From: Eledone cirrhosa
Taxonomy: Eukaryota
Length of the DNA stretch: 64,000 nucleotides
Direction: 5' to 3'
Assembly: GCA_964016885.1 (NCBI GenBank)
Contig: OZ024740.1
Location: 103,416,001-103,480,000 of the forward strand
Under the pieces are notes generated by a model. That model did not search any database, was not told the DNA's origin, and saw nothing but the letters and a program-made list of their open reading frames with translations. Numbering within the stretch: position 1 is the first letter of the stretch; the number at the start of each line of letters is the position of its first letter. This document shows positions 3,493-46,562 of the stretch, piece by piece. The translations under genes were made by a program, and so were the position numbers.

Positions 3493-5860
3493 TTAAAGAG
3501 TAGTGTTTAGCTCGTTTTATGACTTTGAGATGTCGAGATAAATCTCTCCATAGATGAGAAGCCAGTCAGTTCATAACACCCTTTATAGCCATATACAACC
3601 TCAATTAAATGCCTGCAAATTATTTGAAGTCATGAGTTATTTATAGAATTGCTGATATCATAAGAAAATGCACCTAGTACACAGTATACAATGGTAGTGC
3701 TAGTACTATGAGAAAACCAACCAATTACATGCCTGAAGTGGTTGGCATTAGGAAGAGCATCTAGTATAAACCATGCCAAAATGGAACATATGAGCAAGCG
3801 TCACCTGACTTATCTGTCTAGTCTCAGAATATAACCTATCTACCTACACAAGCATGGAAAATAGACTTTAAACAGTGAAACTGGTGATGATTATGATATT
3901 ATCCTTGTTTGATCATTTATGTACTATATATATATCATTTTTCCATTTTCTTCCTTTGCCCTTTTCTCCCTATCACTTCTCTGGACCAACACTTCTAGCT
4001 ATTTATTCCTGTCGTTTGAGGTAAGATTTTACCTGACTCTGTCGTTGACGGCATTTTGCTGTTTTGGCAGCTATCCTTGTGTTAAATTTTTCTCATTATT
4101 CTATAAATTATAATACACTCGCGCCTCAACTTGATTGCCAAGAAAACTTTCTTTATATACTTCGTTTTTTGAATTTGTTTTGCAAGATTTATCTGATATT
4201 ACCTACTTAATGATTTTAAGTAAAGCAATAATATGTACATATATTCTCTCTCATCTATTACTCCCTCCCTTTACCTATCCCTTCTCACCACACTCATATT
4301 CATACATCTCTTTTTCCTCACTTGGTCACCTCTACTTTTCCATTCTCATTCAGTTATTTTTGTCTTGAGTCAAAGACAATGTATGATAGAAAGGGCTCTT
4401 CAAACTATTCACAGATGTGGCAACTTCTCTTATGTTATTGCTATGATAAGATGACCCCAGTACACTTTGTAATGTGATTGGTTTTAGGAAGGGCATCCAA
4501 CTAAAAATTATGTACAAAAGGGATGTATCAGCAAAAGGCATTACACCAAGCAGTATATTCTGAATAAAAACTCAGTTCATATCAACACATCCATCCTGTG
4601 TTGATATGGAAAGTTGGACATAAAATGGGAATATACATGTGTGCATATACATATAATGTGCATGGATGGTGATTATTAGGTGAAGAAGTGCCGGGAGTAC
4701 CAGGTGATCTCAGGGTACTGTATTTCACATGTACTAAAGAGGACTTATCTAAACTATGCAAACATGGGAAAACAGGTGTAAAGCGAGTGCTCAGGTGCAC
4801 TACAACTCATCAGAAAAAGGTAGCCAGAAGTGCATATATAGTACATAGAATAATGTACAAAAGTCAGGAAAGTGAACAGTATATGGGTCTTGATACACAC
4901 CAGAGAGGGAGAATATCAGGTGTAGTGTTGGCAAATTTCGGGAAGCATGGAAGTTTTGAAGGATTCAGTGTTCTGATAGCTAACAACTGAGGCAGGTGGT
5001 TTGTTCCATGCTTCAGCAACTTTGAGCGTGGAAATATGTTTTCAAAAGTCATGAGAGCTGTACTTTTTTCTGATTTAGTAAGCATGTCCACATGTGTTAG
5101 ACATATGGAATTCAAAAAGGTACCCAAGATTGTTGTTGGAAAGATGGCTAATAATTTTGTGGTTGTCTACCAAGTCAGTTGCCAGACATCAGAGCTTTAA
5201 TGTAGCCATGCCCAGGGAAACAAGGTGTTCAGACTGGGTGATATGTTGTCCTCGAGCAAGAACCTTTATTTCACGTTGCTCCAGGAATGAGTTGTAACGT
5301 GACTGGTGTCAAGCTGTATCAGCCATTACCTGGACATCATTGGTGACGTGGAGAGGGGAGGCTAGTCTTCCACAAACAACTTTGCCTGGACTTGTGCTTC
5401 AGAGGGAGACTTTCTAAGTGCAAATCCCAGGTTCATTCGTGACCGAAGGGAGTCTAGGAAGTGTATATGTATATATAAATATATTGTATATGAATATATA
5501 TATATATTGTATATCTGTGTGTGTGTGTGTGTGTATATATATATATATATATTGTATATGTGTGTGTATATATATATATATATATATATATATCATAAAA
5601 CATGTCTATAGAATCACAAGATAAAATATATACCATTTCCTCTCCCAATTAGCATAATTAACTATATAAAAAATCGAATAGACCAGGCTATAAGAATGAG
5701 GCTTCTATGAAGAAATCTCCGACAAATAACCGAAACTAGCCCTTTGCGTCGGCTGCAACGGAATATTTATCGAATATTTCGACAGCATAATCGCCCAGAT
5801 ACAGTCAATTAAACAGAATTAGGTGTAAAATAAACTAGGAGAAAATAGAATACATTTAAA

Positions 5861-5949
5861 TACCTCTACCATGGTTTCATCCGCATTTTGAGATTTCCAA
5901 TAATTATGTAATAATTATGTCACTCGAGCACCGGATTCATCAGGAAGTT
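5861..5949 (-). ncRNA. Type I hammerhead ribozyme in a Penelope-like pLTR/retrozyme fragment (about 5595-6150)
   Basis: Minus strand reads ACTTC-CTGATGA-ATCCG…CGGAT-GAAA-CCATGG-TA-GAGGT. The core is intact, stems I and II pair, and the short stem III is palindromic. Confidence 0.75.
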
Positions 5950-6565
5950 TGCTCTGATCTAGACACTAAAATTTTCCAAAGTGATCGCGCCAAGAATTCA
6001 TTCAAAATGGCTATGAATCGTGACGTAGTCGCGGTCAGGTTGGAAGGGGTGTGGTAGTTGCTTACGGCTGGTGGCTTTTTTGCTAGAAAGCACAGCACAA
6101 TACAGCCAAATTTGTGTCTCAACCTAATGGGAGATTATTACATATAAAAGTTTACATATATACATATACAATGTATATATATGTAAACTTTTATATATAT
6201 ATATATTGTATGTGTGTATATATATATATATATATTGTATGTGTGTATATATATATATATATATATTGTGTGTGTATATATATATATATATATATATATT
6301 GTGTGTGTATATATATATATATATTGTATGTGTGTGTATATATATTGTATGTGTGTTTATATATATATTGTATGCGTGTATATATATATTGTATATGTGT
6401 GTATATATATATTGTATGTGTGTATATATATTGTATATGTGTGTATATATATATATATTGTATATGTGTATATATATATTGTATATGTGTATATATATAT
6501 AGATTGTGTATATATATATATATATTGTATATGTGTGTGTATATATATATATATATTGTATATAT

Positions 6566-42981: not shown

Positions 42982-45900
42982 TATATAGTATATGTATATA
43001 TATATATATATATGTATGTATATATATATATATATAGTATATGTATATATATAGTATATGTATATATATATATATATATATATATATATATAGTATGTAT
43101 ATATATATATATATATATATATATATAGTATATATATATATATATATATTATATATATAGTATATATATATATATATATATATATATATATATATATATA
43201 TATATAGTATATGTGTATATATATATATATATATAGTATATATATATAGTATATGTGTATATATATATATATATATAGTATATATATATAGTATATGTGT
43301 ATATATATATATATATATATATATAATATATATAGTATATGTATATATATATATATATATATATAGTATATATGTATATATATATATATATATATATATA
43401 GTATATATGTATATATATATATATATATATATATAGTATATATGTATATATATATATATATATAGTATATGTATATATATATATATATATAGTATATGTA
43501 TGTATATATATATAGTATATGTATATATATATATATATATATATAGTATATGTATATATATATATATATATAGTATATGTATATATATAGTATATGTATA
43601 TATGTATATATATATATATATATAGTATATGTATATATATATATATATATATAGTATATGTATATATATATATATATATATATAGTATATGTATATATAT
43701 ATATATATAATATATGTATATATATATATATATATAGTATATGTATATATATATATATATATATAGTATATGTATATATATATATATATATATATAGTAT
43801 ATGTATATATATATATATATAGTATATGTATATATATATATATATAGTATATGTATATATATATATATATAGTATATGTATGTATATATATATATATATA
43901 GTATATGTATATATATATATATATATAGTATATGTATATATATATATATATATAGTATATGTATATATATATATATATAGTATATGTATATATATATATA
44001 TATAGTATATGTATATATGTATATATATATAGTATATGTATATATATATAGTATATGTATATATATATATATATATATAGTATATGTATATATATATATA
44101 TATATATAGTATATGTATATATATATATATATATATATATAGTATATGTATATATATATATATATATATAGTATATGTATATATATATATATATATAGTA
44201 TATGTATATATATATATATATAGTATATGTATATGTATATATATATATATATATATATATATATATATATAGTATATGTATATATATATATATAGTATAT
44301 GTATATATATATGTATATGTATATATATATATAGTATATGTATATATATATATATAGTATATGTATATATATATATGTATATGTATATATATATATATAT
44401 ATATAGTATATGTATATATATATATATATATATAGTATATGTATATATATATATATAGTATATGTGTATATATATATATAGTATGTGTATATATATATAT
44501 ATATATATATATAGTATGTGTGTATATATATATATATATATATAGTATATGTATATATATATATATATAGTATATGTATATATATATATAGTATATGTAT
44601 ATATATATATATATAGTATATGTATATATATATATATATAGTATATGTATATATATGTATATGTATATATATGTATATATATGTATATGTATATATATAT
44701 ATATATATAGTATATGTATGTATATATATATATATATAGTATATGTATATATATATATATATATATATAGTATATGTATGTATATATATATATAGTATAT
44801 GTATGTATATATATATATATATAGTATATGTATATATATATAGTATATGTATGTATATATATATATATATAGTATATGTATGTATATATATATATATATA
44901 GTATATGTATGTATGTATGTATATATATATAGTATATGTATGTATGTATGTATATATATATAGTATATGTATGTATGTATGTATATATATATAGTATATG
45001 TATGTATGTATGTATATATATATAGTATATGTATGTATATATATATATATATATAGTATATGTATGTATATGTATATATATATATATAGTATATGTATGT
45101 ATATATATATATATATAGTATATGTATGTATATATATATATATATATATATAGTATATGTATGTATATATATATATATATATATATAGTATATGTATGTA
45201 TGTATATATATATATATATATAGTATATGTATGTATGTATATATATATATATATAGTATATGTATGTATGTATATATATATATATATAGTATATGTATGT
45301 ATGTATATATATATATATATATAGTATATGTATGTATGTATATATATATATATATAGTATATGTATGTATGTATATATATATATATATATAGTATATGTA
45401 TGTATATATATATATATATATAGTATATGTATGTATATATATATAGTATATGTATGTATATATATATATATATATATATAGTATATGTATGTATATATAT
45501 ATATATAGTATATGTATGTATATATATATATAGTATATGTATGTATATATATATATATATGTATGTATATATATATATAGTATATGTATGTATATATATA
45601 TAGTATATGTATATATATATATAGTATATGTATGTATATATATATATAGTATATGTATGTATATATATATATAGTATATGTATGTATATATATATATAGT
45701 ATATGTATGTATATATATATATAGTATATGTATGTATATATATATATAGTATATGTATATATATATATATAGTATATGTATATATATATATAGTATATGT
45801 ATATATATATATATAGTATATGTATATATATATATAGTATATGTATATATATATATAGTATATGTATATATATATATATATATATAGTATATGTATATAT

Positions 45901-46562
45901 ATATATATATATATAGTATATGTATGTATATATATATATATATAGTATATGTATGTATATATTGTATATGTATGTATATATATATATTGTATATGTATGT
46001 GTATATATATATATATATATTGTATATGTATGTATATATTTATATATTGTATATGTATATATATATATATATTGTATATGTATGTTTGTATATATATATA
46101 TATTGTATATGTATATGTATGTATATATATATATGTGTATGTATGTATATATATATATATATATATATATTGTATATGTATGTATATATATATATATTGT
46201 ATATGTATGTATATATATATATATTGTATATGTATGTATATATATGTATGTATATATTGTATATGTATGTATATATATATATTGTATGTGTATATGTATG
46301 TATATATTGTATATGTATGTGTATATATATATATATATATATTGTATATGTATGTATATATTTATATATTGTATATGTATATATATATATATATTGTATA
46401 TGTATGTATATATTTATATATTGTATATGTATATATATATATATATTGTATATGTATGTATATATATATATATTGTATATGTATGTATATATATATATAT
46501 ATATATATTGTATATGTATATATATATATATATATATGTATATATATATATATATATATATA
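42982..46562. repeat. 3.6-kb interrupted (TA)n array
   Basis: Units of TAGTATATG(TA)n drift to TAGTATATGTATG(TA)n and then TTGTATATGTATG(TA)n. Confidence 0.95.

Follow-up and report, generated by a model that had tools for sequence, protein, structure and literature searches.

A 41-kb retroelement island in an IFRD1 intron of Eledone cirrhosa, likely formed by independent insertions into TA arrays of common descent

In a 64-kb stretch of the 3.0-Gb Eledone cirrhosa assembly (contig OZ024740.1; the whole stretch is referred to below as the window), positions 5460 to 46569 form a ~41-kb island made of pieces of RTE retrotransposons, short interspersed nuclear elements (SINEs), Penelope-like elements, and a Tc1/mariner fragment, which are joined through interrupted (TA)n arrays. 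The island takes up ~70% of the ~58.4-kb intron 1 of IFRD1. We consider it likely that it consists of independent insertions in TA arrays descended from a single interrupted (TA)n that lengthened while being hit repeatedly.

Array marker and descent of the island

Pieces of the island were counted from tandem-repeat, open reading frame (ORF), and self-BLAST scans, with masking against fetched loci and a uniform tail call. There are 17 RTE pieces (16 with 3′ tails and one tail-less 5′ fragment at 38041), four SINEs (at 10626, 23249, 26645, and 26991), one mariner fragment (37210–38040), and ~8 Penelope-like or hammerhead-bearing pieces. These numbers agree with a first-pass annotation made from the sequence alone, which had listed about 17 RTE pieces, several Penelope-like pieces, four SINEs, and a mariner, nearly all joined through (TA)n arrays. 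In a hand count of 31 pieces, TA arrays carry 26 of the 30 junctions. The direct junctions are at 7657, 23548, 26990, and 38041; the joins at 23548 and 38041 probably reflect deletions. Masking assigned 28% of the island to arrays; matches were found in other fetched loci for 57% and in the window alone for 6%, leaving 9% unmatched. When five unmatched or thinly matched pieces were searched genome-wide, all proved to be dispersed repeats (302–3921 first-look candidates) and no unique sequence was found in them; the short segments 13616–13735 and 38618–38887 lay outside that search. Two further thinly matched pieces are a Penelope ORF and a mariner ORF.

The arrays carry a common interruption. 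ATTG is present in both terminal arrays of the island, as the first-pass annotation had observed for their core, and 21 of the 32 island arrays bear ATTG or its one-letter variants AATG and TAGT. The interruption 12-mer TATATTGTATAT was found 86 times on the + strand and 3 times on the − strand of the island and 0 times in the rest of the window; elsewhere, it occurs once in 100 kb of neighboring sequence and four times in 112 other loci. A 41-nt two-unit form of the marker gave 62 matches at 11 loci in the 3-Gb genome. The possibility that ATTG is an element-borne tail was rejected, as the marker has one orientation beside many families, and 0 of the 112 other loci have three or more copies. 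The simplest reading of the marker would be one array split again and again. Growth of the island from one (TA)n array, as proposed in the first-pass annotation, is favored by this shared, oriented, and rare marker and by the lack of unique DNA in the five pieces searched. Matching array motifs had also been described on both sides of individual long interspersed nuclear elements (LINEs); at 18574–19832, the two sides agree in the inverted AATG variant rather than in ATTG. The long ATTG array of C1730 was considered as an alternative haplotype and rejected: in the 40 of 70 kb checked, its matches to the island flanks were only short and of old repeats.

For 15 of the 16 RTE pieces compared, the best sampled match lies outside the island, with identities of 94.2 to 99.6%; the 16th, of 99 bp, gives a tie at 100%. 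On sequence identity, the island RTE copies inserted independently and at different times. The RTE pairs 16527/18573 and 8606/10841 were rejected as local duplicates, each copy being closer to distant copies.

RTE target preference and origin of the arrays

The RTE is represented by an intact copy (L077) with one 1079-amino acid ORF starting from Met, in which Exo_endo_phos, RVT_1, and PHD domains score over the Pfam cut-off. In the stretch examined, ~220 nt lie ahead of the ORF; the 3′ untranslated region is ~400 bp, and the tails are (GAT)3-10. The architecture of endonuclease (APE), reverse transcriptase (RT), and PHD finger is widespread, 1408 of 8000 scored candidates being related at E ≤ 1e-30; an Atlas search returned RT-endonuclease-PHD clusters only. 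The nearest named relatives of the endonuclease are maize and Asteraceae “craniofacial development protein 2” proteins, a label that we take to mark RTE proteins, and a Bombyx endonuclease-RT. We assign the element to the RTE clade by this architecture and these named endonuclease relatives rather than by an RT tree.

RTE tails were located by exact patterns, one of which, a 42-nt tail pattern, gave 11,266 exact matches, and a genome-wide junction set was formed by the 1371 tails with exactly five GAT. The tail runs directly into (AT)4 in 492 of them (36%), whereas (AT)4 stands at 2.2% of random positions and behind 19% of all AT without a following G; for 36% versus 19% over 1371 sites, p is about 1e-48. 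The (TA)n enrichment at RTE ends that would be expected from the first-pass annotation is thus present genome-wide. A second set of 53 insertions was obtained from 115 records by removing those in a 17-bp satellite (32), those with open or near–full-length 5′ ends, and 16 in which the 5′ side still belonged to the RTE or was mis-chained. Here, an array is found on at least one side of 42 insertions and on both sides of 29, while 11 have no array on either side; in array-side controls, the value was 10% for the genome, 37% when AT-anchored, 25% locally, and 62% when local and AT-anchored. In 22 insertions with an interrupted array on each side, the interruption words of the two sides agree but vary from locus to locus (cosine of 0.67 versus 0.26; 0 of 10,000 permutations), which argues that the arrays are the target and not the tail.

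The position of insertion is a TA step. The final AT of the tail is followed by A in 91 of the first 100 listed tails, compared to a 64% background. Satellite junctions lie at TAT|RT. In the 17-bp satellite on C1, 24 of the 32 RTE records are at the same step and 31 of 32 are in one orientation, some of them being duplicates made by satellite growth. In this satellite, a T run lies ~10 nt upstream of the site that is used, and 31 of 32 records face it; in non-array flanks, a T run at this distance was found in 6 of 18 cases versus a 16% background (p 0.06). In a 42-bp satellite (L043:1–10000), five tails of RTE-A and RTE-C use three breakpoints, all at an ATAT step. Insertion does not favor the edges of TA runs (median 3′ run of 5 versus 6 expected). 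Because 11 of the 53 insertions have no array and insertion into non-TA satellites is in phase, we conclude from these junctions that TA steps are preferred by the RTE without specificity for (TA)n; the R1/R4/Tx1 type of specificity, which the first-pass annotation had brought up for comparison, is not supported.

The claim that each insertion copies its target was not borne out either. Among the 32 loci where one side is not array, 23 have a target overlap of at most 7 bp, and the nine longer overlaps lie inside TA runs or tandem units. Target duplications of at least 10 bp are thus not supported, the longer overlaps being uninformative. Some re-use of sites, which speaks for a ratchet, was found: an opposite-strand tail lies within 4 nt of 18 of ~1371 tails versus 0.5 expected, a result that is still significant at six-fold local density.

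The 17-bp satellite region itself (L077–L104, C1:7.4–9.6 Mb) extends over at least 2 Mb and holds many in-phase RTE-A copies in one orientation, several of them full length with an intact ORF. In L043, two RTE insertions were duplicated together with the 42-bp satellite.

We propose the following origin of the island. A single interrupted (TA)n array in IFRD1 intron 1 would lengthen by slippage, and elements preferring TA steps would land in it repeatedly. TA steps would be nicked by the RTE endonuclease, and the AT that closes the (GAT)n tail would pair with the nicked end. Each insertion would split the array into two, each part of which would keep expanding via host slippage or unequal exchange, and the target supply would grow although the element makes no copy of it. 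Further contributions to the mosaic would be inversion, deletion, and the likely arrival of at least one array together with a Penelope-like element. Host slippage or unequal exchange is the likely source of array growth because the element copies almost none of its target; the 3.6-kb end array, which grades from TAGT into ATTG, also suggests growth of this kind.

Three other explanations were weighed. According to the first-pass annotation, the RTE is (TA)n-specific, and a ratchet is driven by the insertions themselves, each of which would duplicate or expand the array. The 36% of tails that run directly into (AT)4 would fit, as would a summed array length at insertions with a median of 160 bp versus a length-weighted 91 bp at random (a rough comparison of capped values), and insertions of maize TAFTA elements are reported to expand short TA targets (PMC5907723). 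With overlaps as short as those described above, insertion in phase into the 17-bp and 42-bp satellites, and insertions flanked by no array, we regard this explanation as quite unlikely. Alternatively, the island could be a composite of several older seeds and imported element-array modules, with the marker spread by local gene conversion or template switching. Its center does have older RTE pieces and marker-free arrays, and the marker orientation flips at 18.4–20.4, 27.3, and 39.4 kb. Moreover, the Penelope-like element X with the same downstream CTACATAC array has one copy at 20.4 kb, an inverted one at 33.5 kb, and a third on C3, while none of 47 random loci and none of 5 other X-family loci has the motif of this array. 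The array-X-array block present twice in the island has 7 mismatches in 1002 bp between its inverted copies. Since X and the same array also occur on C3, the CTACATAC array likely came in with X or was copied between loci, and the C3 copy is a candidate source or sister of the copies at 20.4 and 33.5 kb. A composite origin of the island is nonetheless unlikely: one marker orientation prevails in 86 of 89 copies across 41 kb, the marker recurs at 26.6, 28.2, 30.7, 31.7, and 34.5 kb between marker-free modules, and it is absent from arrays just outside (1948, 46.9 kb, and 54–62 kb).

Finally, there may be no real target preference, the pattern arising from AT priming overlap, a genome with ~9% TA arrays, and regional tolerance, or the long arrays may be assembly errors. 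Behind any AT, the background alone reaches 19% genome-wide and 62% locally; RTE copies show strong regional clustering, and the arrays were taken as assembled. Against this stand the excess over 1371 sites, the fixed phase and orientation in satellites, and the differences among the copies, whose best matches are at distant loci. Neither variant explains the local marker, and we give this explanation very little credence.

Several observations weigh against the proposed origin. The marker is lacking in 11 of the 32 island arrays (three of them internal to Penelope-like elements), and, given the occurrence of the X array on C3, probably not all of the arrays are local descendants. The flanks had been described as having almost no young insertions. 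Those named, 1–5459 and 48711–53900, are indeed 75% and 92% unmatched when masked against fetched loci, and public contigs and restriction site–associated DNA (RAD) reads give a single-copy depth of ~10–13 over most of the 48.8–53.9 kb flank; however, these flanks were selectively chosen, and 46.9–61.7 kb, beyond the marked island, holds seven more RTE tails at a density like the island’s. Tail density (17 in 41 kb of the island, 33 in 470 kb of the random sample, and 23 in 120 kb of neighbors) alone is therefore not distinctive. No empty allele was seen in public contigs and RAD reads on 46960–53900, which were swamped by repeat copies. The excess of arrays over the local AT-anchored control is modest (79% versus 62%, p 0.006). 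TA content does not correlate with RTE tails in 47 random 10-kb windows (rho −0.09, p 0.55), 34 of which are tail-less, so TA supply alone is not enough and the region matters. TA-array cover is 26% in the island versus a random mean of 9–10%, with 4 of the 47 random windows reaching 24–29%. The random windows with 24–29% TA arrays (L054–L056 and L064) have 0 or 1 RTE tails.

Descent from one interrupted array, repeatedly split by independent insertions, remains the origin that we consider likely. Like architecture with own local markers was found at C1:102.68 Mb, C2:234 Mb, and C1:211 Mb, 30–70 kb upstream, and on C3, in a sample of marked islands picked by motif and not at random. The island 30–70 kb upstream (L153, L152, L035, and L034) consists of RTE, SINE, and Penelope-like pieces with a TTT word in mixed orientation; on C3 (L228 with L247/L248, C3:128.63–128.65 Mb), the third X copy and the same interrupted array open another island. 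A broader and distinctly speculative extension would be a self-seeding niche in octopods, in which Penelopes carry TA arrays, RTEs, SINEs, and Penelopes re-use them, insertions trigger growth, and thousands of barcoded islands inflate introns and the genome, their words recording history; we doubt that it will hold in full.

Elements of the island and the host gene

At many other loci inspected, the ends of Penelope-like families T, X, Y, and Z lie in (TA)n, in line with the first-pass claim that Penelopes target (TA)n. Their pieces occur in tandem and inverted copies of the pseudo–long terminal repeat (pseudo-LTR) type. The GIY-YIG domain of their ORFs is weak in Pfam (E 0.007, below the cut-off), while three ORF ends align at 39–40% and the GIY-YIG ends keep the conserved C/H residues. 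The linker has four cysteines whose spacing differs from the Neptune CX2-5CxxC, and no RT domain of these elements was found in the island. Rfam hammerhead matches at 21215, 33655, and 31392 are all below the gathering score, as are Rfam microRNA matches, which were rejected as artifacts of TA palindromes. Of the SINEs, which had been assigned to the RTEs, SINE1 has a tRNA-like head and a 3′ end common to RTE families B and C, whereas SINE2 (10626/23249) has no RTE tail.

The island begins with the left terminal interrupted (TA)n array (5460–5601), with the ATTG marker on the + strand, and a dispersed repeat (5602–6148) that is Penelope-like by structure; no ORF was found in it, and it has tandem and inverted copies at other loci. 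Four ATTG arrays with four 5′-truncated RTE-A pieces follow at 6150–8604 (tails at 6564 −, 7463 −, 7770 +, and 7976 −). The 5′-truncated copies with tails at 7463 and 7770 belong to different subfamilies and are fused head to head at 7657, tails outward, as if both strands had been primed at one site. Two family B RTEs on the − strand, each with ATTG arrays on both sides, come next, one 5′-truncated (8606–10590) and one near full length with broken frames (10841–14050); the SINE2 copy between them (10626–10803, +) shows no RTE tail. Downstream are a Penelope-like family end fragment (14092–14370), whose family is also seen at 56.5 and 60.5–61.8 kb, an RTE-A piece between two ATTG arrays (14371–15422, −; tail at 14894), Penelope-like element Z with an inverted structure (15423–16436; 3373 first-look candidates genome-wide), and an RTE-A piece (16527–18404, −) whose closest sampled relative, at another locus, is 99.0% identical.

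The block at 18400–22203 has a flipped marker orientation, with inverted ATTG/AATG arrays. It includes an RTE-A (18573–19830, −) and element X (20405–21406, with a hammerhead-like site at 21215–21259), which is followed by the CTACATAC array. Penelope-like Y (22190–23547, +) consists of a GIY-YIG C terminus and 3′ region with the SINE2 copy at 23249 inside; this SINE is also inside other Y copies at other loci. Then come an RTE-A piece of an older subfamily (23548–25351, +; closest sampled relative 96%), a TG/TA-rich dispersed repeat (25385–25570) that, with 302 candidates, is not unique host DNA, and another RTE-A piece (25654–26610, −). Two SINE1 copies lie tail to tail at 26645–27288, each with a tRNA-like head and an RTE-B/C-like 3′ end, and are followed by an RTE-A piece (27322–27987, +). 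Penelope-like W (28248–30713, −) has an ORF C terminus with GIY-YIG (29839–30537) and an internal TA/CA array.

A partial tandem repeat at 30834–31657, with AATG arrays on both sides and a hammerhead-like site at 31392–31462, and an RTE-A piece (31691–32378, −) precede the inverted twin of the 19.8–22.2 kb block (32565–35404, −), composed of an array, X′ (98–99% identical to X), and an AATG then ATTG array. The family C RTE piece at 35400–37182 (+) has a closest sampled relative of 99.4%. The Tc1/mariner fragment (37210–38040, +; weak Pfam HTH_Tnp_Tc3_2, E 0.004) begins after TA and is directly abutted by an RTE 5′ fragment without a 3′ end (38041–38980, −). An RTE-A piece (39010–39414, +) lies tail to tail, over a short array, with a near full-length RTE-A (39454–42977, −) containing APE, RT, and a PHD-like finger, with one frame break near 42280. 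The right terminal array of 3.6 kb (42978–46569) completes the island, with the TAGT variant grading into ATTG, all on the + strand.

IFRD1 exons were placed in the genome with the Octopus vulgaris IFRD1-like protein, which is 94% identical to an exon just downstream. Exon 1, with a phase-1 GT donor, maps ~5.1 kb before the window start; exons 2 (53326–53451, +), 3 (63123–63209, +), and 4 (63716–63799) lie in the window, and later exons run past its end. The probable intron of the first-pass annotation is thus IFRD1 intron 1. With the intronless paralog on C28 as a guide, exon 1 was not found, that paralog being too divergent. The paralog (L151, C28:84.8 Mb) is a divergent IFRD-family open frame of 433 amino acids, 33–43% identical to IFRD1 exons, and is possibly an old retrogene. 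In intron 2, SINE, RTE-A, RTE-C, and Penelope-like pieces form another cluster at 54162–62337, without the ATTG marker; the RTE at 60692–61680 sits within a Penelope-like end with an overlap of only 1–3 bp. A CpG observed/expected ratio of >0.75 was seen in many 500-bp bins upstream of the window (L031) and in none of 1–5459 or 48711–53900, a contrast with the old intron flanks that would fit gene-body methylation.

Comparison with known systems

The island is a genuine and well-traced feature, and it exemplifies a pattern that recurs across the genome and whose components are known. Plant SaTar arrays are its closest precedent. SaTar MULEs of guayule and rice stand in linear arrays, for the most part without nesting, in which TA microsatellites join unrelated elements; clear target duplications are few or absent, and array expansion is discussed for them (PMC5907723). 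The likeness lies in the non-nested joining of unrelated elements by microsatellites, with one SINE inside Y in our case. In contrast, SaTars are non-autonomous DNA transposons of 250 to 800 bp, and the clusters shown span a few kb (PMC5907723), whereas here three kinds of retroelement and a mariner occupy 41 kb of an animal intron with a locus-specific marker tracing descent.

The RTE shares with the published Tn-TA signature of RTEs a single-ORF APE-RT LINE, a microsatellite-like tail, insertion at a TA step, and a 1- to 2-nt overlap of tail and target; the published duplications are 10 to 49 bp, compared to overlaps mostly of 7 bp or less here, and (TA)n-array islands are not reported with that signature in the accessible text (PMC6007223 and PMC13295347). 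It also differs by the PHD finger after RT in the ORF. Neptune and Naiad Penelope-like elements have a (TA)n bias and resemble ours in the C-terminal GIY-YIG, tandem or inverted pseudo-LTRs, hammerhead-like sites, and (TA)n ends; a young element found at three places with the same downstream interrupted array, as X is here, is not described in the sections available (PMC8557442).

Microsatellite-specific non-LTR groups are known in the R1, R4, and Tx1 clades (PMC4640811). Frequent location at microsatellites is common to them and our element, which belongs to another clade by domain content and relatives and has a looser preference that includes non-TA satellites and unique AT-rich DNA; instead of nearly all copies at one repeat type, 36% are at an immediate (AT)4. 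RTEs of Lepidoptera have been considered as microsatellite makers, and their tails end in simple repeats, as here (PMC2887409). The TA arrays of the present study, however, stand next to variable 5′ truncation points as well and contain locus-specific words, and they are therefore target and not tail.

Octopod genomes are large and repeat-rich, with unexplained hotspots of transposable elements (PMC13282606), and RTE LINEs have been active recently in octopods; an octopus RTE carries a C2H2 finger (PMC9115989), while the finger here scores as PHD. The accessible text of octopus studies reports active RTEs and hotspots but no microsatellite targeting (PMC13282606, PMC9115989, and PMC12988792). 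A literature search, with subscription papers, Repbase entries, and supplements largely outside it, gave no description of (TA)n-linked cephalopod RTE islands or of targeting by PHD-bearing RTEs.

The island suggests a testable route to intron growth in octopods, from one microsatellite to 70% of a 58-kb intron. Locus-specific interruption words serve as natural barcodes by which array descent, inversion, and import can be mapped genome-wide. For biochemical study, the genome provides an intact APE-RT-PHD RTE that was recently active and inserts nearly bluntly at TA steps. Compared to the plant precedent, what is new here is the animal, multi-retroelement form at the 41-kb scale and the barcode showing descent. 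Element arrays linked by microsatellites, as formed by DNA transposons in plants, are thereby extended to retroelements in animals.

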